The notes under the pieces are model-generated. The model was not told the origin of the DNA and made no database searches. It was given only the letters and a program-made list of their open reading frames with translations. The position numbers and the translations under genes were made by a program. Below are positions 23,391 to 60,938 of a DNA stretch of 64,000 nt, one piece after another (within the stretch, counting starts at the first letter, position 1; each line of letters opens with the position of its first letter). This stretch comes from Candidatus Latescibacterota bacterium (GTDB taxonomy: Bacteria; Latescibacterota; CBDEFO01): positions 4,252,314-4,316,313 of the forward strand of contig OZ252149.1 in NCBI GenBank assembly GCA_965248755.1, in the 5' to 3' direction.

Positions 23391-23433
23391 GTGGCGCACC
23401 TCTGCTAAGCGATGTTTCTTGCTCTTTTCCATT

Positions 23434-23470: not shown

Positions 23471-23499
23471 CCGTCAAAGTGGTGCGACCGCTCCGTGAT

Positions 23500-38217: not shown

Positions 38218-38239
38218 ACTAAGGAGTGAGGCGATCACT

Positions 38240-38413
38240 GTGCGAAAGCTTGCGCTTTTTGTCACAATTGCAGGACTTTCAGCGACGGGAGCCATTTTTT
38301 TCCTGGGAAAGAGGAGGAGGGTCTGCCCTGAGTGCAAAAGACGAGTGCAGGGTAATTGGAAATATTGTCCCCACGACGGCGCGAAGACTGAAGCCAAATA
38401 CGAATGGGATTAA
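38240..38413 (+). CDS. small membrane-anchored zinc-ribbon protein (not in ORF track)
   Basis: 57 codons from GTG with AAGGAG about 13 nt upstream; one TM helix then [19 protein letters not shown]. Confidence 0.35.
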
Positions 38414-38865
38414 GCGGGAGAATTGGCGTGCCAAAGATACTGGTCATACATGGTCCAAACCTCAATTTACTCGGCACAAGAGAGCCCGAAATATACGGTT
38501 TACAAACTTTACAGGATATAAATAAAGCTGTAGAGGACTTATCTTGTGAATTAGACGCAGATGTGCAAATATTCCAGTCTAACCACGAAGGCGAAATCGT
38601 AGACCAGATCCAAAAGGCGGGGGAGTGGGCGGACGGCATCCTCATCAACCCCGGAGCATTTACACACTACAGTATCGCAATAAGAGACGCCCTTTCCGCG
38701 GTAGATCTTCCTGCAGTAGAGGTCCATCTGTCAAACCTACACGCAAGGGAAGATTTCAGAAAGAATTCTGTCATAGCTTCCGTATGCACAGGACAAATAT
38801 CCGGATTTGAGGCAAGCAGCTATCTTTTGGGACTCAGAGCCTTAGTAGGTAAACTGAAAGAATAG
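38404..38865 (+). CDS. aroQ: 3-dehydroquinate dehydratase, type II
   Basis: [23 protein letters not shown]...[12 protein letters not shown] motifs; start may be a few codons downstream. Confidence 0.85.
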
Positions 38866-38880
38866 CTTTGGAACTTCGAT

Positions 38881-39984
38881 ATGGCCAGATCGTACACACA
38901 TAAGATAAAACCCCAGGTGAGAGGGCTAACTCCCTATACTCTCAAGCAGTACGACTACGACGTGAAGCTCAATCAGAACGAAAATCCATTCGACTTTCCG
39001 CAAGAGATAAAAGAAGAAGTCCTTCAATTTGCCCGGGAAAGATGTTGGTCGAGATATCCAGACTTCACACAGAAAGATATGGTACAAGCCCTCTCAAGGT
39101 ACACAGGATGGCCGGAAGATGGAATTTTGGTCGGAAACGGTTCAAACGAACTGGTGCAGGCTACCCTCATAACTTTTATAGACGCTCCAGACACGACCGT
39201 GCTCATACCTACTCCCACGTTCACGCTCTACAGGCTGCTCTGCAAAGCCTTGGGAGCCAATGTCCTTGAGGTCTATCTTACTGAGAACTACAGATTCGAC
39301 ATAGAAGCTATAAAAGATGCCACTGAGACAAATTTTCCCGACGTTATGATATTCTGCTCTCCCAACAATCCGACAGGATGTGTCCTGGAAAACAGCGACA
39401 TTGAAGACCTTCTAAACCTCTCTGACGGCCTGATCGTAGTGGACGAAGCCTACTATGAATTCAGGGGCGAAACCTGCTTTTGCCTTTTGAAGGACTATCC
39501 CAATCTGATAATCTTTAGGACCTTCTCAAAAGCCCTTAGTCTTGCTGGACTCAGAATCGGATATCTTATGGCACATCCTGAGCTTGTAGAGCAAATATCT
39601 AAAGTCAAACTCCCGTACAACCTCAATTTCTTCTCACAGATAGCGGCGATGAAAGCCCTCGAAAATAGAGATCTACTGCAAAAGAACATAGACTATCTTA
39701 TCGGACAAAGGGACATCCTCTACAATGCACTCAAAGACATAGAGGGCGTGGTACCCTATCCCTCCTACGCCAACTTCATCCTCTTTGAGACACAATCGAA
39801 TTCTAAAGATATATTTGAGGGACTACTTCAGCAAGGCGTTCTAATTAGGGATGTCAGCGGTTATCCGATGCTTTCTCGTGCCCTAAGATTCAACGTCGGC
39901 ATCCAAGAGGAGAATACAAGATTTCTGGATGCCCTAAAAGAGACAGTGCGCTCGGCGCTTCGAAAAGGAAGTTTAAGCGTATGA
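38881..39984 (+). CDS. hisC: histidinol-phosphate aminotransferase
   Basis: 367 aa; class II aminotransferase layout, LNQNENPF start region. Confidence 0.85.
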
Positions 39985-40577
39985 GCTCTAAAAGACAGAG
40001 TCGTATAGAAAGAGGGACTGCAGAGACACAGATAGAACTCGTGCTCGACCTTGACGGAAGAGGGAAAGCCGACATCGATACGGGAATCGGCTTTTTTGAC
40101 CACATGCTCGAGCTTTTTGCAAAGCATGGGTTCTTCGACCTTACTGTCAAATGTAAGGGCGACCTTAGTGTAGATCCGCATCATACGGTCGAAGACACAG
40201 GGATATGTCTGGGGTCCGCTATCGTTCAGGCTTCAGGGGACAAATCTGGCATCGTAAGATACGGATGCAGCTACGTGCCTATGGACGAAGCCCTTGCAAG
40301 GGTCGTTGTAGATCTTTCAGGACGCTCATCTTTCATCTTTAACGCTGAGATAAGGGACCGAAAGATAGGCCAGTTCCCGATGGAACTCTTGCCGGACTTC
40401 TTCAAAGCCGCAGCCGACAACGCTAAGATGAACCTGCATATAGACCTTATTAGGGGAGAAAATAGCCATCACTCGTCAGAGGCCATCTTTAAAGCCTTCG
40501 CCAGGGCCCTTGACCAGGCCTCGTCAATAAGCCAAAGAGTTCAGGGCGTCCTGTCTACCAAGGGGACTCTGCAGTGA
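39981..40577 (+). CDS. hisB: imidazoleglycerol-phosphate dehydratase
   Basis: 198 aa; [16 protein letters not shown] and [11 protein letters not shown] motifs; 4-nt overlap with hisC. Confidence 0.9.
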
Positions 40578-41665
40578 GTACAGAGGTAAAATACGACTGC
40601 AGATACTTCAAAGGCGACGTCCCCTGCAAATTCAATAAATTAGACGGCTCCGTCTGCGAGTGCTGTGGGCACTACGATAAGGTGGAGGGGAAGATACTCA
40701 TTATAAAGCTCGGCAGGGCCGGAGACGTTATAAGGACCACCCCTCTTTTGAGAAGACTCAAATATGTCTATCCAAAATCCCACATAACGTGGCTCACATG
40801 CTTTCCAGAATTCGTTCCGGATATAGTGGACTGCGTATTTACGTTCGATCCTCAAAACATCCTGTATCTCCAGCAGGTGCACTTTGATATCCTTTACAAC
40901 CTGGACAAGGATGTGGAAGGCTGCACCCTTGCTAACATAGTTTCCGCGGCCACAAAAAAAGGCTTCCACCTCAAAGACGGAAAATGCCATCCTATAGACA
41001 AAGACGCAGAGCACAAGTTCCTCACAGGCATATTCGATCAGGTGAGCAAAGCCAACACCAAAAGCTATCCTCATGAAATTTTCGAGATATGCGGCTTTGA
41101 ATTTAAAGGGGAGGAGTATATCCTCGAGAACTTCGCATCAGAGGGCTATAACTGGAGGATAGAGGAGCCGAAGCCCCTTGTAGGATTAAACACCGGCTGC
41201 GGTGGCACGTGGAGATCCAGACTCTGGGGCCAGGAAAAGTGGGTAGAGCTGGCACAGAGCCTCAAATCACAAGGCATAGGCGTCGTGCTACTGGGCGGAG
41301 AGGGGGAACACGAAAGGAATACATATATCTCAAAAGAAAGCAAAGCAAGCTATCTGGGATACTTCCCTATCAGGAAATTCGTCAACCTGATAGATCAATG
41401 TAACACCGTAGTGACAGCCGTCACCATGGCTACCCACATAGCTATAGGGCGTAGAAAAGGCATAGTCCTCTTAAACAACACGTTCAACCCCAGCGAATTT
41501 GAACTCTACGAATTGGGACAGATTGTAGAGCCTGACTTTGACTGTGACTGCTACTATTCTCCGATATGTCCCAACGACTGCATGCAGTACATCAGTCCCC
41601 AGAAGGTCTTTAACACATGTCTTGCAGTCCTCGAAAGCCAGGGGGAAAATCTTAATCTCTTATGA
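40574..41665 (+). CDS. glycosyltransferase family 9 (heptosyltransferase-like) with N-terminal Cys-rich segment
   Basis: [19 protein letters not shown] and GLNTGCGG...VVLLGGEGE pattern of GT9; N-terminal C-x7-C...C-x-CC. Confidence 0.7.
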
Positions 41666-42822
41666 GAATTTACTTCATAGCTCCTGCTTATCCTCTAAGA
41701 GGTGGCATAGCTCAATACACAGCTCTACTTTACAAGAAAATGCAAGAGAGAGGACACGGGGTGAAAATCATCTCGTTCAAACGGCAGTACCCGGAGTTCC
41801 TCTTCCCCGGAAAGACACAGAAGGAGAGTGGAAAACAGATCATTCGTACCGATAGCGAGGCCATAATCGACACTCTCAATCCGCTGACCTGGCTTAAGGC
41901 TTTTGCAAAGATCAAAGCCGAGCGACCTGACCTGATAATCTTCAAGTACTGGCTCCCTTTCTTTGCTCCCTGCTATATCACCATCTCACTCTTGGTGCGC
42001 CTTTTTACAGAGTATAAAGTCCTTTACATCTGCCACAACATAATCCCTCACGAAAAGCGTCTGGGAGACACTGTACTTACAAAGATAGCCCTGAGATACT
42101 CAGACTACTTCATCGTCCTATCGGACGCGGTCAAAGGTGATCTCCTCAGATTCCGTCCCGACGCTGTGTATAGAAAAGTGCCGCTTCCTGTCTATGATTT
42201 ATTCCACACAAACTACGATAAAATTACAGCCAGACGAAAGCTCAAAATCCAAAAGGAGAGGGTCATCCTGTTTTTCGGATACATAAGGGCTTATAAGGGC
42301 CTGCATCTTATTTTGCAGGCTATGCCCTACGTCCTTAAGCACATAGACATCACCCTCGTAGTTGCCGGAGAGTTTTACGATTCGAAAGAGAAGTACACAG
42401 ACCTTATTGAAGAGCTCAATCTAAATGATCACGTGGAGATATTCGACAGCTTTATACCGGACGAAGAAGTAGGGACCTATTTTGCCGCCGCAGACGCCGT
42501 AGTACTCCCCTATATATCCGCCACGCAGAGCGCAATCGCTCAGATAGCCTACAACTTCGATAAGCCGGTCATAGCCACAGATGTTGGAGGTCTTTCAGAA
42601 GTCGTAGTCAACGAAAAGACAGGCTACATCGTCTGCCCCGAAGATCCTGAGGCTTTCGCAGATGCCATCGTCAAATTCTACTCCCAGAACAAAAATCGGG
42701 AATTCGTTTCGAACGTCAAAGTGGAAAAGGGCAAATATTCGTGGGACAGGATGGCAGAGGCTGTAGAGAGCCTGTTAGCCACAGGGTCAAGCCGTTCCTC
42801 GAAGAGAGGAGAGTCCCGATAA
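41662..42822 (+). CDS. glycosyltransferase family 4 (group 1)
   Basis: C-terminal GT4-like core VVLPYISATQSAIAQIAYNFDKPVIATDVGGLSEVV. Confidence 0.75.
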   Translation: MRIYFIAPAYPLRGGIAQYTALLYKKMQERGHGVKIISFKRQYPEFLFPGKTQKESGKQIIRTDSEAIIDTLNPLTWLKAFAKIKAERPDLIIFKYWLPFFAPCYITISLLVRLFTEYKVLYICHNIIPHEKRLGDTVLTKIALRYSDYFIVLSDAVKGDLLRFRPDAVYRKVPLPVYDLFHTNYDKITARRKLKIQKERVILFFGYIRAYKGLHLILQAMPYVLKHIDITLVVAGEFYDSKEKYTDLIEELNLNDHVEIFDSFIPDEEVGTYFAAADAVVLPYISATQSAIAQIAYNFDKPVIATDVGGLSEVVVNEKTGYIVCPEDPEAFADAIVKFYSQNKNREFVSNVKVEKGKYSWDRMAEAVESLLATGSSRSSKRGESR

Positions 42823-42828
42823 GAAAGT

Positions 42829-43782
42829 ATGGATGAAAAGAAAGAGACATCACAGAACAGCGTTGCAAGTTCCGATCTGCCGTTGGTCTTTGTGATCGTT
42901 TTAAACTGGAACGGGAAAGAGGATCTGTTGCGGTGTCTGGGTTCACTTTCCGGGGTCGAATACGGCAATTTCAAAACGCTGGTGGTTGACAACGCTTCTG
43001 AGGACGGCTCCGTCCAGGCAGTCAGGGAGAATTTCCCCGAAGTTAAGGTCATCCAGAACAGCCGGAACTTGATGTTCTCCGAGGGTAACAACGTCGGGAT
43101 GGAATATGCTTTAAGCCAAAGCTCCGATTATGTTCTCCTGCTAAATAATGACATTGTAGTCGCTCCGCAGTTTCTAACCGAGATGGTCTTGGTGGCTCAA
43201 AGCGATCCTCTTATCGGGATGGTAGGACCCAAAATATACTATTATGATAATCCCCAAAGGTTATGGTTCGCAGGTGGAAAGGTGGAATTATGGAGGGGAA
43301 GGATAAGCCATTTAGGAATAAGAGAGTTCGATTCTGGGCAGTACGATTCTACAAGGGATATAGATTATGTAACAGGCTGTGCGATTCTGGTCAAAAGAGA
43401 AGTCATAGCAAAAGTCGGTATGCTCGATGCTTCGTATTATATTTACTCGGAGGATGTGGACTGGTGCTGGAGAGCTAAAAACGCCCAATATAGATCGGTA
43501 TTAGCACCAAAGGCTAAAATCTGGCATAGGATTTCAGCCTCTACAGGAGGAGAATTGACGCCGTTCAAGGTATACTGGAGGATAAAAAGCAGCTTAAGAT
43601 TCTACAGAAGATACGCAAGTTGGTATCATTGGCTGACGGTGCCTATATTCGTCTCTTTTGACACAGCCAAGTTTGCATTAAGGCAGATATTTAAGGGGAA
43701 TTTTGAGATAGTGTCCTCACTGTTGAGAGGCTTTAAGGACTCGCTTACAGGGAGCAAAGTTCCGACTGGAACAATACGATAA
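42829..43782 (+). CDS. glycosyltransferase family 2
   Basis: VIVLNWNGKEDLLRCL...VVDNASEDGS...LLLNNDIVV pattern. Confidence 0.75.
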   Translation: MDEKKETSQNSVASSDLPLVFVIVLNWNGKEDLLRCLGSLSGVEYGNFKTLVVDNASEDGSVQAVRENFPEVKVIQNSRNLMFSEGNNVGMEYALSQSSDYVLLLNNDIVVAPQFLTEMVLVAQSDPLIGMVGPKIYYYDNPQRLWFAGGKVELWRGRISHLGIREFDSGQYDSTRDIDYVTGCAILVKREVIAKVGMLDASYYIYSEDVDWCWRAKNAQYRSVLAPKAKIWHRISASTGGELTPFKVYWRIKSSLRFYRRYASWYHWLTVPIFVSFDTAKFALRQIFKGNFEIVSSLLRGFKDSLTGSKVPTGTIR

Positions 43783-43800
43783 GCGGCCGAATATAAATAG

Positions 43801-45141
43801 ATGCAACTGAGCAGGTATCTACACGAGGGCATCTGGGCGTTTCTGGATAAGTCCCTGCCCCTTATTTACGGCGTCTTTTTTATAGTCCTTGTGATTCGGA
43901 CACTGCCTGAGGAGGAATATGGACTCTTTGTTTTAACTTATAATGGCATATTCATCACACTGACGTTAATTAGCAAGACTCTGATACTACAGCCGATGAT
44001 AAAATATGTATCAGAAAAGGATGATACTAAAGCTGTAGTTACCCAAACGATATTTCTCAATTTTGCCATATTAGCGCTCTTTGTGCTTATCGTTATCCCG
44101 TCTTCGCCGATTGTAGCCAGGTTATTCCATTCATCTCGACTTGTTCCCCTTTTGAAGTTTGTGCCCTTTTTGTTAGCAGCCCACTTTATGAAGGACATAA
44201 CCTTGGGACTGCTCACCGCCAAATATCGGATGAAGGAGGTATTTTGTCTTGACGCTGTCTATTTTCTCGGCTCTGCCCTTTTGATGCTGGTCTATAATCT
44301 GATGGGCCGTATGGACAGCGCACAAGACGTGTTGACGATTACGTGTTTTACGGCACTGGCAGCCTCGATAGCAGGGACTTTCCTGTCGAGGGACCTGTTA
44401 AGGCTCGACTGGAAAATAGACTTCAACACTATAAGGACAATTCTTAACTTCGGCAAGTACACTTTGGGTTCGGGCGTTGGAAATATACTGCATACTCAGA
44501 TAGACACCCTTATGATCGGCTACTTTTACGATCCCTTTCAGGTCGCCTTGTACAACGCCGCCAAGATCTTTTTCAAGATATACAATGTCTTCTCACAGGC
44601 AATAAGCATGTTAGTTTTCCCGTTAGTCTCGAAGTTGCACGCAGAGGGCAAGCAAGATGAGATCAAAGCGCTCTTTGAAAAGATGGTCTGTTTTTATTAT
44701 ATTATTCTGATCCCCTTTAATTTAGTGCTGTTGGTACTTTCAAAAGAGATATTTGAAATTGCCTATGCAGGCAGATATCCTGACTCTGCTAAGATATTTA
44801 TAGTTTTAATTATCGGGACGTTCCTAAGCCCATTAGGAACTGTAGGTTCTAACATTATCCTTGGAATCGAAAAGCCCAAGATCAATTTTAGAATTACCTG
44901 GCTTGCGGTAGCCTCCAATGTAATCTTGAATCTTCTATTTATTCCCAGATATGGAGCCTTCGGAGCCGCGGTTGCCACTGTTTTCTCCATGGGGATCGGT
45001 TATATACTTATTGCTGTGTTCACAAAAAGGATAACCGGCGCAACCTTTACAGGTGTCCTTGTAAGAGTGAAAGATGCGGCAAACTTTGGGAGGGAGATAT
45101 TGAGTAATGTGCAAAAAAACTTTTCTGGAGAGATACGATAG
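43801..45141 (+). CDS. polysaccharide biosynthesis membrane protein (Wzx-like flippase, MOP superfamily)
   Basis: 446 aa, about 12 predicted TM helices, position within GT cluster. Confidence 0.6.
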   Translation: MQLSRYLHEGIWAFLDKSLPLIYGVFFIVLVIRTLPEEEYGLFVLTYNGIFITLTLISKTLILQPMIKYVSEKDDTKAVVTQTIFLNFAILALFVLIVIPSSPIVARLFHSSRLVPLLKFVPFLLAAHFMKDITLGLLTAKYRMKEVFCLDAVYFLGSALLMLVYNLMGRMDSAQDVLTITCFTALAASIAGTFLSRDLLRLDWKIDFNTIRTILNFGKYTLGSGVGNILHTQIDTLMIGYFYDPFQVALYNAAKIFFKIYNVFSQAISMLVFPLVSKLHAEGKQDEIKALFEKMVCFYYIILIPFNLVLLVLSKEIFEIAYAGRYPDSAKIFIVLIIGTFLSPLGTVGSNIILGIEKPKINFRITWLAVASNVILNLLFIPRYGAFGAAVATVFSMGIGYILIAVFTKRITGATFTGVLVRVKDAANFGREILSNVQKNFSGEIR

Positions 45142-45168
45142 GGATTTATCCTGACGGGGAAGTTCCGA

Positions 45169-45828
45169 ATGAAATTTAATCCTTCATATGTGGAAGAACG
45201 TCCTGATGTACTTTCACTAATCCGGCCTGGCATAAGAAATTTGCTTGACATTGGCTGTAGTGATGGAACATTTGCCCTGTCTGTGAAGAATAAATTCAAA
45301 TCTGTAGAGGTCTTAGGAGTTGAACTTGATCCTTCTATGGCTTCTGTTGCTAAACAAAGATTAGATATGGTTCATATTGCTGATTTAAACAAGGTTAATC
45401 TCAGTAATCTTTTTCCAGAGAAAACATTTGATTGTATAGTAATGGCAGATGTTTTAGAGCACCTTATTGATCCATGGAATATCATCAAACAAGCTTCATC
45501 TCTTTTGGCTGACAATGGAAGGATTGTTACAAGTATCCCAAATGTTCGTCACATTTCTACAGTTATAAGTCTAGTATTGAAAGGGAAATGGCCATACAGA
45601 AAACGTGGCATTCATGACATGAACCATCTACGATTCTTTACTCATTCAAACATTGTCGAAATGTTTGATAAAGCAGAATTGAAAATAGTTAGAGAAAAAA
45701 GGAATATGAGGATTGTTGAGCGCAGTTTTAAAAAAATAGATATATTTGCTAAGTTATTTGATATTCTAGGATTAAGAGAGTTTTTTACAATTCAGTATTT
45801 ACATGAATGTGTTCTATCTGACGAATAA
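45169..45828 (+). CDS. SAM-dependent methyltransferase
   Basis: LLDIGCSDGTFALSV (motif I) and IVMADVLEHLIDP. Confidence 0.7.
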   Translation: MKFNPSYVEERPDVLSLIRPGIRNLLDIGCSDGTFALSVKNKFKSVEVLGVELDPSMASVAKQRLDMVHIADLNKVNLSNLFPEKTFDCIVMADVLEHLIDPWNIIKQASSLLADNGRIVTSIPNVRHISTVISLVLKGKWPYRKRGIHDMNHLRFFTHSNIVEMFDKAELKIVREKRNMRIVERSFKKIDIFAKLFDILGLREFFTIQYLHECVLSDE

Positions 45829-45994
45829 AAGAATCCGTGGTTTTCAGCGGGCTTACAGCGTCTAAGAGAGTAACATCTGGATGGTCACTATTCATCATTA
45901 GACTCAGGGAATTCGCGATGCTCAAGATCGCTTTCGCCAGGAAACTTATCCAGGGGAACATAACCGTAAGACGCGTTGAAGGAGCAAAGCCAAG

Positions 45995-46927
45995 ATGGAT
46001 AGAAGGGTTAGCATCTTTATTCTTAACTACAACGGAAGAGATCTTTTAGAGGAATATCTTCCTTCTGTAATGGAGGCTGTGGAGTACGATAGCGGCGGAC
46101 ACGAGATTGTCGTTGTAGACAATCTCAGCACGGATGACAGCGTGGAGTTTGTGGAGAGGAACTTCCCTGGGGTCTGTGTCAAGAGGATGGAGGTAAACAG
46201 ACTGTTCTTTTCTTATAATCGGGTCGTAAAAGAGTGTAAAAACGATTATATTATCCTCCTAAACACCGATGTGAAGGTTGTAGAGCCCCACTTTGTAAGT
46301 CCTCTTTTAAGACATTTTTCTGATCCCGATGTCTTTGCAGTTATGCCCAAGGTCCTATCCGACAATCCTTCAGCAGAGTACCTTTGCAGATGTCCCGGTG
46401 TCTTTTGGCGGGGTTTTCTAAAGGCAGAGAAACGGGAAAAGTTTCCGGGGAGCGGATTTACACTCTTTGCGCTTGGAGGAGCAGCCGCCTACGACAGAGA
46501 GAAGTTTTTGGAACTCGGTGGATTCGATGATATTTATTACCCCGGGTATTCTGAAGACGTGGATATTTCCTATTTAGCGTGGATGAGAGGATGGAAGATT
46601 ATCTTTGAACCTGAAAGCGTGGTGTTTCACAAGAAAGGCACTACGTTCAAAAGGACTTATAAAGATGATATGATACAGGCGCAAGAGGAGAAGGTAGCGA
46701 TGCTCTTTGTCCTAAAGAATATATCTGATAGAAAGCTATTAGCAAGTTTTCTCTTTTGGTCGGTGCTCAGATTGGGTCAAAGGATTTTACAAACTAACTA
46801 CCCTAAAATAAAGGCTTATTGGAATATTATAAAAGATTTACCCAGGATTTTGTCGTCTCGAAACAGGACGAAGGCTTTCAGGAAGATTTCAGATAGGGAG
46901 ATACTTCAAATCATAAGGGATAATTAG
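45995..46927 (+). CDS. glycosyltransferase family 2
   Basis: VSIFILNYNGRDLLEEYL...VVDNLSTDDS...LLNTDVKV pattern. Confidence 0.75.
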   Translation: MDRRVSIFILNYNGRDLLEEYLPSVMEAVEYDSGGHEIVVVDNLSTDDSVEFVERNFPGVCVKRMEVNRLFFSYNRVVKECKNDYIILLNTDVKVVEPHFVSPLLRHFSDPDVFAVMPKVLSDNPSAEYLCRCPGVFWRGFLKAEKREKFPGSGFTLFALGGAAAYDREKFLELGGFDDIYYPGYSEDVDISYLAWMRGWKIIFEPESVVFHKKGTTFKRTYKDDMIQAQEEKVAMLFVLKNISDRKLLASFLFWSVLRLGQRILQTNYPKIKAYWNIIKDLPRILSSRNRTKAFRKISDREILQIIRDN

Positions 46928-47084
46928 TTTGAACGCTTGCAGGGGAGCATTTCATAGTCAGCCGGAAGTTCCTTGGAAGAGATAGTTTCTATGGCAGAGG
47001 AACTGTAGGTCCTGCCGGGGAAGACAGTGCGGTTCAGCTCCTTGCAGAATATAAAAAACTGTGTAAGGAGAAAAGGGAACAAAA

Positions 47085-48176
47085 TTGAAGATCATCTTAT
47101 CAGCAGGGGTTCGACCTAAGTTTATGAAGGTTGCACCGCTTGTGGAGGAGATTAGGAAGTTTCCGGAGAATCTTCAGGCTTCTCTCATTCACACAGGATA
47201 GCACTACGATGATCCAATGTCCAGGGTGTTCTTCTGTGATCTGAAACTTCCCAAACCGGACAGATATTTGAACGTGGGATCGGGAACTCACGCAGTCCAG
47301 ACGGCCGGAGTGATGGTGGTATTTGAGCAGGTACTTTTAGAGGAAATGCCAGATTTAGTAATAGTGGTGGGAGATGTGAACTCGACTTTAGGGTGCGCAC
47401 TTATCGCCGCCAAACTGGGCATTAAGCTGGCGCACGTGGAAGCAGGACTGCGCAGTTGGGACCGCACGATGCCTGAGGAGATTAATCGGGTTGTGACCGA
47501 CTTAATTTCGGATCTACTGTTCACACCTTCGGAGCATGCAGACGAGAACCTACTCCACGAGGGGATACCCCAAGAGAAGATATTTTTCGTGGGGAATATA
47601 ATGGTCGATTCTCTGCTTAGATCTAAGCGGATAGCGTTAAGATCCAAGATCCTGGAAGAGATAGGTTCAGCAGAAGACAACTACTGTCTGGTGACGCTGC
47701 ACCGTCCATCTAACGTCGATGTAAAGGGGGTCCTATCTGGAATCATCAATGCATTAGACAAGATTCAGGAGCAGATTAAGGTAGTCTTTCCCGCTCATCC
47801 CAGGACGCAAAAGATGCTCCGGGACTTTGAACTGCTCAGAGTCTTGGAGGGTATGGATAATCTGACTTTGATAGAACCCTTAGGCTATCTGGATTTCTTG
47901 AAGCTTGAGATATGCGCAGAGGTAGTGTTGACCGATTCCGGTGGGATACAAGCGGAGACGACAGTTTTAGGGGTGCCGTGTCTAACTTTGAGGGAGAATA
48001 CGGAAAGCCCCACGACTGTCGAGATCGGGACAAATCTGGTCGTGGGAAACCGAGAAGATGATATCGTGGTTGCAGTATATAAGGTTCTACAAAGTAAGGG
48101 TAAAAAGTGGAGCATTACAAAATTCTGGGATGGTCGAACATCAGAGCGGATCGTCAGGATATTGAAAGGTATTTAA
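47085..48176 (+). pseudogene. wecB: UDP-N-acetylglucosamine 2-epimerase (non-hydrolysing) with in-frame amber codon at 47199-47201
   Basis: TTG start after GGAG; translation LKIILSAGVRPKFMKVAPLVEE...SLIHTG-stop-HYDDPMS continues in the same frame into ORF 47217..48176; the stop sits where this family usually has Gln. Confidence 0.65.
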
Positions 48177-48234
48177 GCCTGATTTAAGTGCGCCGTTATC
48201 CAATGCACAAGATCGATACCGTCAGCATTAACAG

Positions 48235-49395
48235 GTGACAAGACAGATGTTAAAACTTGTGGTCTTTTCGGAGATCAAGTGGAGTTACCTAAAAACTCGC
48301 AAACAACAGATCATAAGTCGATTTCCAAAAGATTGGCGCATACTTTTCATTGAGCCTTTTGTCCTCGGCACACGCAATCAGTTCTTGCCAAAAAAGACAC
48401 AAAACGTCATACACGCAACAGTCCCGTTTTTCAAAATCGTTCCGGAGGGGGTTGTACGAAGAACATTAGATGAGAGAATCGCCAGAGCTATTATCAGTAC
48501 TTTAGTCTTTTTATGGGTAAAAGCGATCTTCTTATTAACCGGCTTCACCGGAAAAAAGAGGGTCTTTTTCGTATCTAATATATACTACTCTTATGTTGTG
48601 CAAAGGCTTGCCAAAGCTCTCGTGCTATACGACTGCAACGACAATCCTTTAGCATTTCCCGGCACTCCCGGGTGGGCTGAAGGTTATTTTCATAAACTCA
48701 GTCGGCTCTCCGACGTGATATTTTACTCCGCTGTGGAGCTCAGCAAAAAGGTAGATTCTTGCCAAAGGCACAAGACAGTTTTCATCGGCAACGGAGTCGA
48801 TTTCGAACTCTTTCAAGGAGAGCTAGTACACGACGAAGGGGCCCTGGAACTTAATCGCATTTCTGGGACGATTATCGCTTATGTTGGAGCTATCGATAGT
48901 CGGATGGATTTCCAGTTATTGGCTAAGATCGCCTCTGCATATCCGTCTGCTTCGATGGTATTCATAGGCCCGGTGGCTCCCAAGGTATCCGAAGAAGTCC
49001 AAGAGCTGAAGGAATACCCCAATATTTTTCTTTTAGGCACGAAGGTGCACGATGTTCTACCGTCGTATTTGAAAAGGGCTAAGGTATGTATTATCCCATT
49101 TGTAAAAAATGAGCTTACCGCCTCAGTAAATCCGGATAAGCTATATGAGTACTTAGCGGCAGGAAAGCCTGTAGTGACGTTGGATTTTTCCCCTGAAGTG
49201 TCTCAATACAGTGAGATCATTTATGTAGCTTGTGACCACGAAGATTTTACCAAGAAGGTGGGCCTGGCTCTAAGTAAGGAGCATGATACGGAGAAAATGA
49301 AGGCTATAGCCCGGGCAAACGATTGGAGTCAGAAGGCAAAGCAGATGATAGCTATTATTGACGAGTGCCTTAATAATAAGAAAGATTGCTCGTAG
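48235..49395 (+). CDS. glycosyltransferase, group 1-like
   Basis: C-terminal half has GT1/GT4 pattern (AYVGAIDSRMD...FIGPVAP...IPF...KLYEYLAAGKPVV). Confidence 0.6.
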   Translation: MTRQMLKLVVFSEIKWSYLKTRKQQIISRFPKDWRILFIEPFVLGTRNQFLPKKTQNVIHATVPFFKIVPEGVVRRTLDERIARAIISTLVFLWVKAIFLLTGFTGKKRVFFVSNIYYSYVVQRLAKALVLYDCNDNPLAFPGTPGWAEGYFHKLSRLSDVIFYSAVELSKKVDSCQRHKTVFIGNGVDFELFQGELVHDEGALELNRISGTIIAYVGAIDSRMDFQLLAKIASAYPSASMVFIGPVAPKVSEEVQELKEYPNIFLLGTKVHDVLPSYLKRAKVCIIPFVKNELTASVNPDKLYEYLAAGKPVVTLDFSPEVSQYSEIIYVACDHEDFTKKVGLALSKEHDTEKMKAIARANDWSQKAKQMIAIIDECLNNKKDCS

Positions 49396-49495
49396 GCGAT
49401 ACACTGCTCCCCATCCTCAAAGAGAGTTTCACTGGGAACTTGTCTCCTTGTGTCTTAGCTTCTTCACTGTACCATCCCCAAAGTGTTGAACACAG

Positions 49496-49717
49496 TTGAC
49501 AGCTTGCCTGAAAGAATATTACACCATACTGTTCCCCGTGGAATGCATGGGATTTAATTCTGCCCCTGAGGTTACCGCCAAAGTGTTAAAGAGGGGATAT
49601 AAAATCTACGAAGTACCGATTTCATACGGTCCGAGAGGAAAAGAAAAGGGCAAGAAGCTACGCTGGAACGTCGGCTTAAAGGCTATTTGTACTCTGATAA
49701 AATATCGTTTTCTGTAA
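49496..49717 (+). pseudogene. C-terminal fragment of a GT2 polyprenyl-phosphate glycosyltransferase (gene remnant)
   Basis: Only about 50 aa (RGYKIYEVPISYGPRGKEKGKKLRW...) resembling the tail of GtrB/ArnC-like GT2 enzymes such as the intact paralogue at 52257..53225. Confidence 0.4.
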
Positions 49718-49801
49718 GGTTTTTATCAGGAGGAGGTTGTCATTAATTCCAAAAGACAAAAAAGGGCCCAAAAAAGGAAACCGAGCGCAGGGGAGCCCAA
49801 A

Positions 49802-52279
49802 ATGTCAGCCTTCGTATTCTCCGAAAGAGGAAAAGAACTGATAGCGTGCTGTTTAATATTCGTATTAGTCCTGATATTGTTTCGCGAAGTGATCTTTCAG
49901 AATAAGAGCTTTGTCGTTCCGGACAGCAAGGCTCCCGCCGCTTTGACGGCACCTATGAGCGAGTCGTTGAACAACGATGGTATCTATCCGCTCTGGCATC
50001 CCTATATCTTCAGCGGTATGCCCTCCTTTGCAAGTCTGATATACAACCCCTATGTCTATGTACTCGGTGCCCTTATGTCTATATTCAATTTTGTTCTGCC
50101 TCCACTGAGCTGGCTTTGGATACACTATTTTCTGGCTGGATTTTTTACATTTATCTTGATGAGGTCGAAGAAGATAAGCATTTCGGGAGCTCTCCTTTCG
50201 GCAGTGACCTTTACCTTCACGCCGTACTTGGTGGCTATGGGGACGTTCGGGCACGGGAGCCAGATGATGACAGCTGCATATATACCCTTGGCTTTTTGGG
50301 CAGTCGACAGGCTCCTCGAAAAGAGGAGCATCCTGTATATCGCCTTGACGGCGTTAGCGCTCGGCCTTCAACTGCAAAGAGGTCACGTCCAGATTGCGTA
50401 CTACACCTGGATGATGCTCGGCCTCTACTTTGTCTATTTTTCGTACTTGAGGCTTCGATCCGGAGCATCGGCTACGGACGTCTTGAAAACTGGCGGACTT
50501 TTAGCCATAGCCCTGGTATGGGCGTTTGCCTTAGCCTCTGTCCTCTACCTGCCCGTTTACAACTATACTCCCTATTCCATACGGGGCGGCGGTTCAGAAG
50601 GTGGCGTGGGATTCGAATATGCCACTGGTTGGTCGTTTCATCCTAAGGAGATGCTGACCTTCTTGGTGCCCTCTTTCTTCGGCTTCGGCGGCATTACCTA
50701 CTGGGGAAAGATGCCCTTCACCGATTTCCCCAACTATATGGGCCTAATCCCGCTTTTTCTTGCAATCTTAGCGCTGATCTGGAGGAGGAACAAGACTACC
50801 GTCTTTTTCGGAATCCTCATATTCGTCTCACTTTTGGCATCCTTCGGCAGACATTTTTTCTTCTACCAGTTCCTCTACGACTTTCTGCCCTTCTTCAAAA
50901 AGTTCCGCGTGCCCGTCATGATCCTTATAATGGTTCAATTTTCCGTCGCCGTGATGGCGGGCTATGGGCTGGACAATCTGATTAGATTTTCCCGGGAAAA
51001 GATGGAAAAAACTACAAGCGAAAAGATTAAGAGGCTCACAAAGCGCCTCGCCATCGCCATCGGAGTCCTGATAGCCGCAGGCTTGATCCTGAGCCTTGGA
51101 AAGAAGTCGTTTTTCGGGACAATGTCAGAGATATATCCCCAAAGTGCCAGATACACCATTTTGGAACTTAATCAGATGAGATTCGACATGTTCTATAAGG
51201 ATACCTGGAAGATGATATTTCTCTTTGCTATCGGGGGCGGCATAACTATCGGACTTTTAAAAAGATATGTAAGGCCTCATCTTTTCGGAATAGCTCTCCT
51301 TTTTCTGGCGACAGCAGACCTGTGGTTGGTAGACTTTAAGCTCATTCGTCCCTCTGGGCGGGGAGAGATGAACCGGTATTTAGCTCAGGATGAGACGATA
51401 GAGTTCATAAAAAGGGATGAGGACATCTTTCGAATATTCCCTGTAGGCAGGCTCTTTTCGGATAACAAATGGGCCGCACATCGCATCTTTTCTATCGGGG
51501 GATACCACGCGGCCAAGTTGAAGATATATCAGGAATTTTTGAGCGAGCAAGGCATCCCCGAGGGATTCCTTGCGAAGTACCTGAAGCCCTCTCGTACCAC
51601 CGAGCAGGGCTACGTCCTGAAGGATATAGACGAAGTTTCACTCAAAGATCGCCGCGCCCACTCTGCGGCTCTGGACATGCTGAATGTCAAATACGTCGTC
51701 TCTCCATATCCTATCCCCGATCCACAGTACAGGTTAGTGGCACAGAAGAAGGGCTATATAGACCGACATGAAACTTCACTGAACATCTATCAAAAGCAGA
51801 GTGTGCTCCCGAGAACCTTTCTTGTCGGGAAAGTCAAAGTCGTCCCAGACGAAAACAAAATCCTGGATGAGATGAGATCCGGGGCGTTCGACCCCCACGA
51901 GTATGCCCTTTTGGAGGAAGTTCCCGAGTTTGAACCTGAAAGTGTCGAAAGCAGCTTTGCAAGGATCACAGATTATGGAATTCATAACATAAAGCTTGAG
52001 GCTTCCAACCTCAAGCCCTGTCTTTTGGTCTTAAGTGAGATATATTATCCTGAAGGTTGGAAAGCTCGTCTGGATGGGGAAGAGGTAAAAATATACAAGA
52101 CTAACTACCTGCTCAGGTCAATCCTCCTTCCTCCCGGTGATCACAGGGTTGAGTTTGTCTTCGATCCCTGGGATTTTAAGTTGGGGCTTTGGATAAGCGT
52201 TGGGGCATGGGCACTGCTGATAGGCTTACTTTCTCTGAAAGGGGTACGATATTATCGTGCAGAAAGAGGACAAAAGTAG
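49802..52279 (+). CDS. YfhO-family polytopic membrane protein (GT-C-like glycosyltransferase)
   Basis: 825 aa; N-terminal multi-TM domain, large extracytoplasmic domain, C-terminal TM; family assignment by overall architecture. Confidence 0.65.
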   Translation: MSAFVFSERGKELIACCLIFVLVLILFREVIFQNKSFVVPDSKAPAALTAPMSESLNNDGIYPLWHPYIFSGMPSFASLIYNPYVYVLGALMSIFNFVLPPLSWLWIHYFLAGFFTFILMRSKKISISGALLSAVTFTFTPYLVAMGTFGHGSQMMTAAYIPLAFWAVDRLLEKRSILYIALTALALGLQLQRGHVQIAYYTWMMLGLYFVYFSYLRLRSGASATDVLKTGGLLAIALVWAFALASVLYLPVYNYTPYSIRGGGSEGGVGFEYATGWSFHPKEMLTFLVPSFFGFGGITYWGKMPFTDFPNYMGLIPLFLAILALIWRRNKTTVFFGILIFVSLLASFGRHFFFYQFLYDFLPFFKKFRVPVMILIMVQFSVAVMAGYGLDNLIRFSREKMEKTTSEKIKRLTKRLAIAIGVLIAAGLILSLGKKSFFGTMSEIYPQSARYTILELNQMRFDMFYKDTWKMIFLFAIGGGITIGLLKRYVRPHLFGIALLFLATADLWLVDFKLIRPSGRGEMNRYLAQDETIEFIKRDEDIFRIFPVGRLFSDNKWAAHRIFSIGGYHAAKLKIYQEFLSEQGIPEGFLAKYLKPSRTTEQGYVLKDIDEVSLKDRRAHSAALDMLNVKYVVSPYPIPDPQYRLVAQKKGYIDRHETSLNIYQKQSVLPRTFLVGKVKVVPDENKILDEMRSGAFDPHEYALLEEVPEFEPESVESSFARITDYGIHNIKLEASNLKPCLLVLSEIYYPEGWKARLDGEEVKIYKTNYLLRSILLPPGDHRVEFVFDPWDFKLGLWISVGAWALLIGLLSLKGVRYYRAERGQK

Positions 52280-53225
52280 AGCTGAAGACGCGAAAAGAAA
52301 GAGCTTTTTTTCGATTGTGATCCCCCTCTTGAACGAGAGACCAAGCCTCAAAGAGCTCTTTTTCAGGATCAAGAGCGTAATGGGGGAGGTGGAGAAAGGA
52401 TACGAGGTAATCTTTATAGACGACGGGAGCACGGACGGCTCGTTTGAGATCTTAGAGGAATTGAAAAAAGATAACAAAGAGGTGGTAGCGATTCAGTTCA
52501 GAAGGAACTGCGGGAAAGCTGCCGCTCTATCTGCGGGATTTGAACAGGCACAGGGCGAGGTTATCGTAACGATGGACGCCGATCTTCAGGACGATCCTGA
52601 GGAGATACCCAATGTCATACAGAAGATAAACGAGGGTTATGACATCGTCTCCGGATGGAAGAAAGAGAGGAAGGACCCTATAGGGAAGCGGCTCTCCTCC
52701 AAGGTCTTCAACTTCGTCACTTCGCTTGTCACAGGTGTGCATCTCCACGACATCAACTGTGGGCTTAAGGCCTACAGATGGGAAGTGGCAAAGGACATCA
52801 CTCTTTACGGAGAACTCCACAGGTACGTCCCTGTCCTCGCCTACTGGAAGGGGTACAAAGTAGGAGAACTCGCCGTGGTGCATCACCCCCGAAAGTTCGG
52901 AAAGAGCAAATACGGAGTAAAGAGGTTTCTAAGCGGTTTCTTCGATCTTTTGACGGTTATGATGATAACCAGATACCTTACAAAGCCCCTGCACCTCTTC
53001 GGCACAGTTGGAGTCATACTCACACTGGCAGGAACGGCCATAAACTCATATCTTACGTACCACAAACTCACAACCGGTTCACTCGGTGGACGTTATCCAC
53101 TTTTGATGTTGGGAATCCTTTTGATGATAGTAGGCATACAATTTGTCTCAACTGGACTCCTTGCTGAGATAATGACGACCTCGATGGGAAAAGAGAAATA
53201 CCCCATCAGAAAGATATTGGAGTAG
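52257..53225 (+). CDS. GT2 polyprenyl-phosphate sugar synthase (GtrB/CsbB/ArnC-like)
   Basis: FSIVIPLLNE...IFIDDGSTDGS...VTMDADLQDDPEEIP and two C-terminal TM helices. Confidence 0.8.
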   Translation: MQKEDKSRAEDAKRKSFFSIVIPLLNERPSLKELFFRIKSVMGEVEKGYEVIFIDDGSTDGSFEILEELKKDNKEVVAIQFRRNCGKAAALSAGFEQAQGEVIVTMDADLQDDPEEIPNVIQKINEGYDIVSGWKKERKDPIGKRLSSKVFNFVTSLVTGVHLHDINCGLKAYRWEVAKDITLYGELHRYVPVLAYWKGYKVGELAVVHHPRKFGKSKYGVKRFLSGFFDLLTVMMITRYLTKPLHLFGTVGVILTLAGTAINSYLTYHKLTTGSLGGRYPLLMLGILLMIVGIQFVSTGLLAEIMTTSMGKEKYPIRKILE

Positions 53226-53301
53226 GACATTAGGCTTAAAGACGTATGTAAAGTTAAAGTTGCCGAAGATTCTTACTTCCAGACTCCCCATCCGTGTCCT
53301 G

Positions 53302-54003
53302 TTACGCAGCTTCTTTTTTCCCTTCGTCTTTTTTCGCTTTTCTGGCCTCTATTTCCTCTTTGAGATGGTCTATCATACGGGACGCCTTTCTCATTATTGG
53401 ATTGTCCTTGAGGAAATTACGTGCTTTTTGTCGTTCCTCCTCTGTGAAGACTTCCTCTTCGACGAGCTTGGATATGAGGTCTTTTTGCTCTTTGGAGGCA
53501 GTTTTCCCGTTCCCGTTGCTTCCGAACCCACCGTTTCTCGTGCCTGTATGTTCCCGGGGAGGCTCCTTTATCTCATCCACAGAGCACATTCCTGTGGCGG
53601 TCGCCAACCGCATAGCCCTGTTGGTAGCTCTCCTTGTCGCCATTTCGATCGGATATTCTGGGAACTTTACAAAGCCCTTCAGGTTATGAGGGCTCGCCGT
53701 GCCGTAATCTACGAAGGGCTTTTCGAATCCTTCGACCCAGACTTCCCCTTTCATGACAACGAGGGGATCTCCCTCCTTGAGAGCTATCATCGCCCTCAGG
53801 AGTCTGTACTCCTCAACTGAGGGGGGGAGTGCCTGAACAGCGAATCTTCCTGCTCCGTACTTCTGCAGCATCTTATACTGGAGGCCCGCTCCGGTTATGT
53901 AAGGTTCACCATCTATAAATACCACAAATTCCTCAACCTTTTGGATAGGGAAGCGCTCAGAATCTGCGATCTCTTTTTGCATCTCTTTCAATGTCTTTTC
54001 CAT
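53302..54003 (-). CDS. hypothetical protein with Gly-rich linker
   Basis: 233 aa, charged, no signal peptide; no recognisable family. Confidence 0.4.
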   Translation of the reverse strand: MEKTLKEMQKEIADSERFPIQKVEEFVVFIDGEPYITGAGLQYKMLQKYGAGRFAVQALPPSVEEYRLLRAMIALKEGDPLVVMKGEVWVEGFEKPFVDYGTASPHNLKGFVKFPEYPIEMATRRATNRAMRLATATGMCSVDEIKEPPREHTGTRNGGFGSNGNGKTASKEQKDLISKLVEEEVFTEEERQKARNFLKDNPIMRKASRMIDHLKEEIEARKAKKDEGKKEAA

Positions 54004-54378
54004 CTGAAACCTCCACTCTAAAATAATAATCTAAAGGAACAATTCCCGAATAGTGTCGACACTACGAATATACTGTACATTAGTGTATTTGTCAAGGAAA
54101 AAATAAAGATTTTTCCAGATATTTAAAAAAAATGGAACGATCATCCGTAACGGTTTCTTGATGCTTAATTTTGTGGAACTGATAGGGCTATAAATACGGA
54201 CTAAATCAGCTTGTAAAACCCTTACGAGATTTTGCATAGGTTTTGATTTTACTTGATTTCTGCGCATCAGATGAATATATTATCGATGTGCTCTTTGGAC
54301 GTATTTCGTTTGTGGAAGAATAGAGTTGATCTGTCATCGGTGCACTGATAGAATCCAGGTAAGTGGGAGAAAAGGTGA

Positions 54379-54990
54379 ATGGTTGAGCTTTTCAGTAAGG
54401 GCGGATCTTTTATGTATCCGCTCCTGTTCTTATTTGTCGTCGGAGTAGCTATAATTTTGGAGCGCATCTGGACACTCACCAGGGCTTCTGTCAATACGAA
54501 GAGATTCTTCTTTCGGCTCCAAACCGCCCTTGAGGAAAATGGTCCTGAAGGAGCAGCTATGGTCTGCGCTGATACAAGGGGTCCCGCTGCGACTGTCATC
54601 CATGCCGGACTTCTAAGGCTCCCAAGGGGAATTGATCACGTAGAAAAGGCAATTGGTGATTCAGGAGCTATCGAAATGGCATTTTTGGAAAAGGGGATGG
54701 TCTGGCTCGCTACGGTTGCCAACATAGCTCCCATGATAGGCTTCTTAGGGACCGTACGGGGTATGATAAGGGCGTTTCAAGCCATCGCTGAGGCGGGGGA
54801 TGTGGAGCCCACGCTCGTGGCTTCTGGAATATCCGAAGCGCTCATTACCACTGCAGCCGGACTCGCCGTGGCTATACCGATGCAGTTCTTTCACAATCTC
54901 TTCGTCTCCAGAATTGACAAGATCGTTATCGAAATGCAGGAGACCTCTACAGCCTTTGTGGATAGTCTTATCGAAAAAGAGTTTGGTTAG
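54379..54990 (+). CDS. exbB: MotA/TolQ/ExbB proton-channel protein
   Basis: 203 aa, three TM segments, IAPMIGFLGTVRGMI motif. Confidence 0.85.
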   Translation: MVELFSKGGSFMYPLLFLFVVGVAIILERIWTLTRASVNTKRFFFRLQTALEENGPEGAAMVCADTRGPAATVIHAGLLRLPRGIDHVEKAIGDSGAIEMAFLEKGMVWLATVANIAPMIGFLGTVRGMIRAFQAIAEAGDVEPTLVASGISEALITTAAGLAVAIPMQFFHNLFVSRIDKIVIEMQETSTAFVDSLIEKEFG

Positions 54991-60860: not shown

Positions 60861-60938
60861 GCGCCCATGGCTCAATTTGGATAGAGCATCTGACTACGGA
60901 TCAGAAGGTTGGGGGTTCGAGTCCCTCTGGGCGTGCCA
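60861..60938 (+). tRNA. tRNA-Arg (anticodon ACG)
   Basis: Cloverleaf folded by hand: acceptor GCGCCCA/TGGGCGT, D-stem GCTC/GAGC, anticodon stem TCTGA/TCAGA with loop CTACGGA, T-stem GGGGG/CCCTC with loop TTCGAGT, discriminator G, encoded CCA. Confidence 0.8.

Follow-up and report, generated by a model that had tools for sequence, protein, structure and literature searches.

A YfhO/GtrB-type Glycosyltransferase Pair in a Candidate Envelope-glycosylation Cluster of a Latescibacterota Bacterium

We analyzed a glycan-assembly cluster of ~12.6 kb that lies within a 64,000-nucleotide stretch of the genome of a Candidatus Latescibacterota bacterium (contig OZ252149.1, positions 4,252,314 to 4,316,313; this whole stretch is called the window, and all positions refer to it). 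The cluster ends with the genes for an 825-aa YfhO-like membrane protein and for a family 2 glycosyltransferase (GT), designated GT2c. From gene content and comparison across phyla we regard the locus, tentatively and at somewhat less than even confidence, as a lineage-specific arrangement of an envelope-glycosylation module of the Fibrobacteres-Chlorobi-Bacteroidetes (FCB) superphylum, which would be the counterpart of Bacteroidota O-glycosylation and whose likely acceptor would be the Ser/Thr residues of exported proteins.

RESULTS

Layout of the Cluster

The open reading frame (ORF) listing and the profile searches located 11 features on the + strand between 40574 and 53225, behind aroQ (38404-38865), hisC (38881-39984), and hisB (39981-40577), and all of them lie where the original prediction, made from the DNA letters alone, had placed 11 same-strand genes. 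The start of the first gene, GT9, overlaps the stop of hisB, and GT2c overlaps the stop of the YfhO-like gene by 23 nt. The features are as follows.

40574-41665 (+): GT9, a GT9-family, heptosyltransferase-like glycosyltransferase (PF01075, 33 bits, cutoff 22)
41662-42822 (+): GT4a, a module-conserved GT4 glycosyltransferase (PF00534, 103 bits)
42829-43782 (+): GT2a, a module-conserved GT2 of the soluble type (PF00535, 68 bits)
43801-45141 (+): Wzx-like flippase of the MOP family (Polysacc_synt_3, 80 bits; also Polysacc_synt, MurJ, and MatE)
45169-45828 (+): S-adenosylmethionine-dependent methyltransferase of the strain-variable cassette (Methyltransf_23, 72 bits)
45995-46927 (+): GT2b, of the strain-variable cassette (PF00535, 58 bits)
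47085-48176 (+): wecB (UDP-GlcNAc 2-epimerase), interrupted by TAG (TIGR00236, 306 bits for the 319-aa distal ORF)
48235-49395 (+): GT4b, a TuaH-like Glycos_transf_1 protein (NF047676 TuaH, 110 bits, under the cutoff; PF13692 and PF00534)
49496-49717 (+): C-terminal remnant of a GT2, 73 codons (tblastn, no Pfam match)
49802-52279 (+): YfhO-like membrane protein, 825 aa (Pfam YfhO, PF09586, 40 bits)
52257-53225 (+): GT2c, a GT2 of the GtrB/ArnC/CsbB type, 322 aa (PF00535, 108 bits)

The gene identities originally proposed were borne out for GT9, GT4, the GT2s, Wzx, the methyltransferase, and the remnant, but wecB proved to be interrupted by a TAG codon. The gene described as GT1-like does encode a glycosyltransferase, though of the Glycos_transf_1 family (CAZy GT4-type).

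The 825-aa Protein Is a Distant Member of the YfhO Family

The 825-aa protein passes the Pfam YfhO model with 40.0 bits against a gathering threshold of 28.5 (E 2e-10), the match being restricted to residues 746-799 (54 residues), which correspond to positions 782-835 at the end of the 835-position model. Pfam YfhO was the sole family match of the protein, and the NCBIfam models gave a weak C-terminal match to PgfM1/PgfM2 (22 bits). With BLAST alone, Firmicute YfhO matched the protein only at its C terminus. A profile of 37 homologues of the 825-aa protein was then compared by hhalign with a canonical reference, the YfhO from a Limosilactobacillus fermentum record of the plasmid database, which scores 759 bits over the full length of PF09586. 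The alignment had a probability of 96.4% (E 1e-9) and extended over 386 columns, covering query residues 95-546, i.e. the membrane domain; the block WxxxP...PxSFxF...MP...PN(Y/I)xG was common to the 825-aa family and the L. fermentum protein.

An AlphaFold2 model built from the 37-sequence alignment (pLDDT 85.5, pTM 0.85) displayed ~13 transmembrane (TM) helices, a periplasmic β-rich domain at about residues 516-789, and a C-terminal TM helix. When this model was compared with the PDB by Foldseek, the matches were AftD, STT3/OST, EmbA/B, AftA, PglB, and PMT (E 1e-7 to 1e-2), all of them GT-C enzymes, with query-normalized TM-scores of just 0.23-0.43. Judged by its model, the 825-aa protein is predicted to have a GT-C fold. 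In that fold, the catalytic acid is expected in the first external loop, and Asp41, a residue of the first periplasmic loop that follows TM1 closely, is the same in 37/37 homologues. A search of the PDB by sequence gave nothing meaningful for the 825-aa protein (best E 0.5). Profile search, hhalign, and model together uphold the earlier assignment of this protein to the YfhO family as a GT-C-like enzyme.

Sequences from Bacteroidota were obtained by tblastn of a plasmid collection, which includes mislabelled chromosome pieces. The 825-aa protein aligned over its full length, at 23-25% identity, with annotated "YfhO family proteins" of Bacteroides, Parabacteroides, Phocaeicola, Prevotella, and Bernardetia. 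The hhalign comparison of the 37-homologue profile with the YfhO of Bacteroides finegoldii gave a probability of 100% (E 6e-71) over 768 columns, in which D41 was aligned with D36. As for the 825-aa protein, the B. finegoldii YfhO matches Pfam YfhO at the C terminus only. Because of the full-length homology to the Bacteroides proteins and this shared C-terminal-only pattern, we place the window protein in an FCB-type YfhO clade. As far as sequence comparison goes, it is a YfhO-family protein in the broad sense, belonging to a distinct clade that is far from the teichoic-acid enzymes. The family comprises 17,122 representatives of 50%-identity clusters at E<=1e-30. One homologue, P0111, has 1110 aa, and its precomputed Pfam domains include the protein-kinase families PF00069 and PF07714.

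The Partner GT2c and the Flippase

The translation of GT2c contains the motifs DDGSTD and DADLQDDPEE and two hydrophobic C-terminal TM helices. The top NCBIfam matches were ArnC (NF007986, 210.7 bits), PgfS (143 bits), and AglJ (75 bits); identification of GT2c as ArnC itself was rejected, since the score is well under the cutoff of 529, and the two are of the same subfamily type. With these motifs, its two TM helices, and its ArnC and PgfS matches, GT2c thus bears the hallmarks of the polyprenyl-phosphate sugar synthases, the type to which it had been assigned originally.

No ORF of 80-260 aa with at least three TM segments resembles GtrA in the 64-kb window, and PF04138 had no match among the window ORFs scanned, the rest of the genome lying outside this search. 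Instead of a GtrA-type flippase, the cluster contains the Wzx/MOP protein, whose top NCBIfam match is the "O-glycosylation flippase" model NF058658 (72 bits, far under the cutoff of 720).

Conservation of the Module across FCB Phyla

The nearest relative of the window carries a YfhO-like protein that is 96% identical and comes from a metagenome-assembled genome (MAG) labelled Candidatus Latescibacterota. No other homologue exceeds 49% identity, and these further sequences derive from MAGs of KSB1, Marinimicrobia/Neomarinimicrobiota, Calditrichota, Fidelibacterota, Zixibacteria, and Eisenbacteria. Conservation was surveyed by tblastn of the window proteins against 79 loci, and counts were made on the 52 loci whose upstream sequence extends for at least 8 kb; orthologues of GT2c were counted when they had at least 40% identity and lay on the same strand within 10 kb upstream of the YfhO-like gene. 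GT2c orthologues (44-58% identity) were found in 27/52 loci, GT4a in 23/52, and GT2a in 21/52, and the three occurred jointly in 17/52. This synteny comparison, carried out in other phyla, bears out the association of GT2c with the YfhO-like gene. The proposal of a YfhO/CsbB-like module stands in that the pairing recurs; it does not extend to a GtrA-type flippase, and the module is distant from the teichoic-acid enzymes.

The order of the genes is also recurrent. GT4a orthologues (38-60% identity) follow GT2c in KSB1, Marinimicrobia, and other loci, and GT2a orthologues (37-54% identity) follow GT4a. In KSB1, a compact five-gene operon, GT2c-GT4a-GT2a-Wzx-YfhO, is bordered by unrelated genes on either side, and the Marinimicrobia order is GT2c-GT4a-GT2a-methyltransferase-CDP-alcohol phosphatidyltransferase-GT4-Wzx-YfhO. 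Of 64 loci, 24 have an MOP flippase gene as the direct upstream neighbor of the YfhO-like gene, and 43 have one anywhere in the locus. Orthologues of GT4b (39-42% identity) are found directly upstream of the YfhO-like gene in five loci (L026, L029, L031, L042, and L072). These arrangements amount to a conserved FCB module, GT2c-GT4a-GT2a-(variable)-Wzx-YfhO, of which the window contains a rearranged version with GT2c moved to the tail. Judged by gene order, the tail-end adjacency of YfhO and GT2 is lineage-specific, as elsewhere the GT2 heads the operon, and the association itself is general. Paralogues of the YfhO-like gene were also observed, two loci in one MAG (L024 and L026) and a tandem pair in KSB1 (L034:9113-15389).

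Relationship to Bacteroidota Genes

The B. finegoldii yfhO adjoins ahcY (sahH). In Parabacteroides distasonis, a GT4a orthologue (38.5%) lies between ahcY and yfhO, and yfhO ends an operon of further GTs; the Bernardetia yfhO stands alone, and its context is uninformative. GT2c has Bacteroidota orthologues of 48-51% identity, which in B. finegoldii (L085:578-2121) and Rufibacter (L086:4891-6945) are preceded by one or two genes for DUF4199 membrane proteins, for which a role as flippase or partner is conceivable. In Rufibacter, GT2c is directly followed by a GT4a orthologue (40%), and in Flammeovirga the orthologues of GT9 (44%) and GT4a (39%) form an overlapping gene pair. Genes that are scattered in Bacteroidota are thus gathered in one locus in the candidate phyla.

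These genes bear on a long-standing gap. According to a 2025 review, the oligosaccharyltransferase (OTase), the core-glycan flippase and enzymes, and the ligase of Bacteroidota O-glycosylation are undiscovered, and the reducing-end sugar of the O-glycan is a hexose (mannose) (PMC12871550). A preprint of July 2026 predicted, in silico only, that the Bacteroidota yfhO is the missing O-OTase, because it resembles PMT in HHpred, is widely conserved, is predicted to be essential, and has 12 TM helices (bioRxiv 10.64898/2026.07.27.740950).

Strain Variation and Interruption of wecB

Comparison of the window with the 96% relative revealed flanks of 95-97% DNA identity and a wecB-GT4b block of just 89%. 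The 1.86-kb cassette with the methyltransferase and GT2b (45156-47014) is replaced in the relative by a gene for a 396-aa GT4 (L001 5184-6313), and the relative has an extra 913-bp segment with a gene for a 251-aa methyltransferase before the GT2 remnant (L001 8827-9739; window site 49525-49540). Loci that diversify a surface glycan typically combine a variable middle with conserved ends, a pattern that, by analogy, may mirror the logic of a conserved core and a variable outer glycan. Convergent with GT2c, at 53302-54003 (-), lies a gene for a charged 233-aa protein with no family match, which is 100% identical in the relative, versus 96-98% for the neighboring proteins. Beyond the 3' end of the shared region the 96% relative diverges and carries a DDE_Tnp_1 transposase there instead.

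The 73-codon ORF was interpreted as a GT2 remnant because its tblastn matches are the C termini of annotated GT2 proteins of Bacteroidota (Bacteroides, Chondrinema, Bernardetia, and Hymenobacter, 39-51% identity); it also matches GT2c residues 198-235 weakly and is kept in the 96% relative, at 84%.

The wecB gene contains an in-frame TAG at codon 39 (47199-47201), within the conserved H-T-G-Q-H-Y-D block, which thus reads HTG*HYD. Both close relatives (L001 and L002) have CAG at this site and an intact 350-aa gene, and TAG serves as an ordinary stop in 9/33 confident genes of the window. Because the relatives have CAG and TAG normally terminates genes, the wecB TAG should be a nonsense allele or a base-call error, and the same two observations ruled out recoding of the stop codon.

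Sequons and a Secreted Tetratricopeptide Repeat Family

The sequon of Bacteroidota O-glycosylation, D-[ST]-[ALVIMT], was counted in the window and in the 79 FCB loci with a crude ORF and signal-peptide caller. The predicted secreted proteins (n=148) contained 283 sequons where 140.5 were expected, an observed/expected ratio (O/E) of 2.01 that carries the crudeness of the caller, and the ratio was 1.08 for cytoplasmic as well as membrane proteins; four control motifs gave 0.87-1.00 in the secreted set. When a tetratricopeptide repeat (TPR) family was left out, the O/E of the secreted proteins was 1.53, with a cluster bootstrap interval of 1.13-2.00. A Paenibacillus control gave 0.74 for secreted and 0.76 for cytoplasmic proteins, and a Sinorhizobium negative control was unusable, as it provided 10 predicted secreted proteins. 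For the window alone, the values were 1.26 (secreted) and 1.22 (cytoplasmic).

The TPR family, of which 18 members lie next to the module, had an O/E of 4.3, the sequons being mostly DST, DTL, and DSL. In KSB1 (L005, 2605-4446) and Marinimicrobia (L062, 751-2394), TPR genes are found directly upstream of GT2c. The window has the following member, with 7 motifs against 1.1 expected.

56594-57820 (-): secreted TPR protein, a recurrent neighbor of the module whose membership in the system is uncertain

The TPR motifs may be glycosylation sites or a structural quirk.

Other Features of the Window

A second sugar cluster occupies 11390-18468 on the opposite strand (-). It includes a WecA/MraY-type phosphoglycosyltransferase (17323-18468), a DegT aminotransferase (16139-17263), two Wzi-like ORFs (11390-12268 and 13368-14309), and a CapD/PglF-like sugar 4,6-dehydratase gene (14279-16293) that is broken into three ORFs, which indicates frameshifts or assembly errors. 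The parts of the split gene are as follows.

15550-16293 (-): N-terminal TM part
15097-15531 (-): Rossmann part
14279-15220 (-): catalytic part

The opposite-strand cluster could provide the initiating step or make a different glycan. Between trmD and gatB, the window encodes another GT-C enzyme (PMT_2/ArnT type, 589 aa, 23374-25143, +), which is a possible further periplasmic glycosyltransferase or ligase. The product of the gene at 893-1756 (-) bears a C-terminal sorting domain for type IX secretion (Por_Secre_tail), which fits an organism of the FCB superphylum. Three transposase genes, one of the IS1595 type and two of the Mutator family, are located at 18965-19735 (+), 58073-58873 (-), and 62317-63564 (-); of the three, the 266-aa transposase appears truncated. 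No metG gene is present in the window. Promoter and terminator scans of 38000-54500 gave counts equal to the shuffled expectation and did not indicate operon boundaries, and the Rfam and tRNA scans detected a single tRNA-Arg, at 60861-60938, outside the cluster.

DISCUSSION

A Putative Pathway of Periplasmic Glycosylation

The original prediction of extracytoplasmic glycosylation of a surface polymer or protein appears right as a general inference. The assignment of families and folds, the recurrent grouping of the genes, and the variability of the cluster's middle come directly from the analysis, and on this basis a more specific pathway, whose chemistry is inferred, can be proposed. The cytoplasmic GT9, GT4a, and GT2a, together with the variable methyltransferase, GT2b, wecB, and GT4b products, would build a lipid-linked glycan, which the Wzx-type flippase would carry to the periplasmic face. 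At the cytoplasmic face, the GtrB/ArnC-type GT2c would load a sugar onto polyprenyl phosphate, and the YfhO-type GT-C enzyme, with Asp41 as the putative catalytic residue, would perform the periplasmic transfer from a lipid-linked donor. This donor may be the single sugar of the polyprenyl-phosphate sugar, as for PMT and PgtC2, or the whole Wzx-flipped glycan; single-sugar transfer is the activity of canonical YfhO, of PMT, and of the streptococcal enzymes. Three points favor exported proteins as the acceptor. The OTase candidate of Bacteroidota belongs to this clade, genes for a polymerase, a ligase, and export are missing from the cluster, and streptococcal YfhO-family proteins paired with GtrB-type enzymes O-glycosylate proteins (PMC12041528).

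A bolder version of this proposal, which we consider possible but on balance doubtful, is that the locus is a complete, single-operon protein O-glycosylation pathway that predates Bacteroidota and extends across the FCB superphylum, with the YfhO-like protein as the O-glycosyl- or oligosaccharyltransferase. GT2c, whose Bacteroides orthologue lies beside a DUF4199 gene, would then supply the reducing-end sugar in the form of a polyprenyl-phosphate hexose, the conserved core would be built by GT4a, either without GT9 and GT2a or together with them, and the strain-variable cassette would provide the outer glycan. In a stronger variant, the glycan would be built on polyprenyl monophosphate, in the manner of haloarchaeal AglJ, and after flipping by Wzx it would be moved en bloc to the acceptor by YfhO.

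Several observations weigh against assigning the cluster to protein O-glycosylation. With wecB interrupted, the pathway of this strain may have changed. An initiating transferase of the WecA type is encoded 22 kb from the cluster, which bears on the lipid-linked donor of YfhO. Some genomes contain at least two YfhO paralogues, as is seen more with enzymes that decorate polymers than with one general OTase. In the sequon analysis, Prevotella, the positive control (300 kb), gave 1.22 for secreted and 1.21 for cytoplasmic proteins, i.e. no separation, and the sequons of the TPR family fall at fixed positions of the 34-residue repeat (periodic modulo 34); because this control fails to separate the classes and the TPR family dominates the signal, we treat the enrichment as a hint and do not rely on it. 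Sequon enrichment has moreover been reported mainly within Bacteroidota (PMC12871550). Porphyromonas gingivalis was reported to be without YfhO (bioRxiv 10.64898/2026.07.27.740950) and nonetheless has an O-glycoproteome (PMC8729774); Alistipes, too, reportedly has no YfhO. Finally, the lipooligosaccharide (LOS) cluster of Bacteroides thetaiotaomicron (BT3362-BT3380) likewise starts with GT9 and includes many GTs and a GtrA-like gene (PMC5850320).

Alternative Explanations

The resemblance to the LOS cluster favors the strongest rival explanation, namely that the locus is a lipopolysaccharide (LPS)/LOS core (waa-like) cluster, in which GT9, GT4a, and GT2a would extend 3-deoxy-D-manno-oct-2-ulosonic acid (Kdo)-lipid A in the cytoplasm, GT2c and the YfhO-like protein would decorate lipid A or the core in the periplasm, and Wzx would serve an O-unit. 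Periplasmic addition of sugars to lipid A or the core is established for ArnC/ArnT, Rhizobium RgtE/RgtA-D, Bordetella LgmA/B, and Francisella FlmF/FlmK, the characterized GT9 members act on the LPS inner core, ArnC is the best NCBIfam match of GT2c, and GT9-GT4a is kept as a two-gene unit in Flammeovirga. We nonetheless regard this explanation as rather unlikely. GT9 scores 43, 37, and 30 bits on the NCBIfam models of heptosyltransferases I, II, and III, whose cutoffs are 185, 135, and 170, so its identification as a named heptosyltransferase was rejected, and its next-best relatives in the plasmid database are from Streptomyces, an organism without LPS. Pfam and NCBIfam profile scans of 40574-53225 detected no Kdo transferase, LPS kinase, or Wzy_C/WaaL domain, the compact KSB1 and Marinimicrobia operons are without GT9, and the adjacency of Wzx and YfhO would be left unexplained.

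An LPS core is not the only polymer to be considered. GT2c and YfhO might act as a Gtr-like side branch that adds just one periplasmic sugar to a Wzx-dependent polymer attached elsewhere, an O-antigen, a capsule-like polysaccharide, or an S-layer-associated polysaccharide for whose synthesis the other GTs would be responsible. CsbB/YfhO decorate teichoic acids and GtrB/GtrC the O-antigen in this way. For canonical YfhO, such a role has been established by experiment (PMC8035078, PMC5836110), and it would agree with the YfhO paralogues of several genomes, with the Wzi-like genes and the WecA/DegT/CapD-like sugar cluster of the same window, and with the modelled C-terminal β-rich periplasmic domain, which could bind a polymer. 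It is, however, improbable, as profile scans of the cluster revealed neither a Wzy polymerase nor genes for chain-length regulation, export, or a ligase, a GtrA-type flippase is missing from the window, and conservation across phyla and the predicted essentiality of the Bacteroidota counterpart would be unusual for an accessory decoration of the serotype type. Least probable of all, and in our estimate very much so, is that in this strain the cluster is losing or has lost its function, such that no present mechanism should be derived from it. The premature TAG in wecB, the GT2 remnant upstream of the YfhO-like gene, the CapD/PglF-like gene split into three ORFs elsewhere in the window, and the three transposase genes speak for decay. 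On the other hand, the remaining cluster genes are intact and 84-98% identical at the protein level to those of the relative, the YfhO-like protein (96%) and GT2c (98%) being among the best conserved; the remnant must be old, as it is common to the relative; and the breaks may be assembly errors, since the relatives are 5-8x long-read contigs that also contain split genes.

Comparison with Known Systems

The preferred reading, an FCB module for glycosylation of exported proteins, may be compared with four groups of characterized or partly characterized systems. The CsbB-GtcA-YfhO teichoic acid system of Bacillus subtilis, Staphylococcus aureus, and Listeria monocytogenes likewise combines a GT2 synthase with an extracytoplasmic YfhO-family GT-C enzyme of the same architecture, i.e. 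a multi-TM domain, an extracytoplasmic β-rich domain, and a C-terminal TM helix. The relationship of the window protein to it is nevertheless remote (54 residues in Pfam; hhalign probability of 96% over the TM domain). The host is of the Gram-negative type, with TonB and ExbB/ExbD genes beside the cluster, and teichoic acid is not expected. Furthermore, the window has no GtrA-family flippase, and the pair is embedded together with Wzx and five or six further GTs.

In streptococci, the YfhO-family proteins PgtC2 and PgfM1, acting with GtrB and PgfS, O-glycosylate proteins (PMC12041528). These GtrB-PgtC2 and PgfS-PgfM1 systems likewise pair a YfhO-family GT-C enzyme with a GtrB-type GT2 and transfer a sugar from polyprenyl phosphate to Ser/Thr of exported or membrane proteins, but they are Firmicute enzymes that add single sugars to Ser/Thr-rich disordered regions, and the matches in the window are far under the equivalog cutoffs. 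With the LFG system of Bacteroidota the cluster shares Wzx, a set of GTs that is conserved in part and variable in part, and methyltransferases, which would fit methylated glycans. In Bacteroidota, however, the genes are dispersed (yfhO beside sahH or luxS, LFG beside metG), whereas here a single locus lies beside hisB; the order metG-wzx-...-two conserved terminal GTs is not matched by the window cluster, which follows aroQ-hisC-hisB, and the host is outside Bacteroidota, where sequon enrichment has not been reported.

Pairs of a GT2 and a GT-C enzyme are not unusual in Gram-negative bacteria, ArnC/ArnT and GtrB/GtrC being established examples. The proteobacterial ArnC/ArnT and GtrA/GtrB/GtrC systems follow the same logic, in which an undecaprenyl-phosphate sugar is made, flipped, and used by a GT-C transferase in the periplasm of a diderm. 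In the window, by contrast, the GT-C partner is of the YfhO type and not of the ArnT/PMT_2 type or GtrC, and ArnA/B/D/E/F and GtrA genes are missing.

Significance

The O-OTase, the core-glycan GTs, and the ligase of Bacteroidota have been sought for more than 15 years (PMC12871550; bioRxiv 10.64898/2026.07.27.740950). As the Bacteroides yfhO is not clustered with other genes of glycosylation, its operon context there provides no evidence on what it does. In the Latescibacterota-like, KSB1, Marinimicrobia, and Eisenbacteria loci, the YfhO orthologue lies in an operon with Wzx, a GtrB-type GT2, and two conserved GTs. If an alternative explanation were true instead, the loci would point to a widespread, unstudied YfhO-dependent modification of LPS or polysaccharide in diderms, in a family of ~17,000 50%-identity clusters at E<=1e-30. 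The value of the finding is therefore comparative: it would contribute operon-level evidence and a candidate gene set to the glycobiology of Bacteroidota, the candidates there being yfhO, the DUF4199-adjacent GT2 (WP_022275493.1, B. finegoldii), and the GT4a orthologue (WP_121956197.1, P. distasonis).

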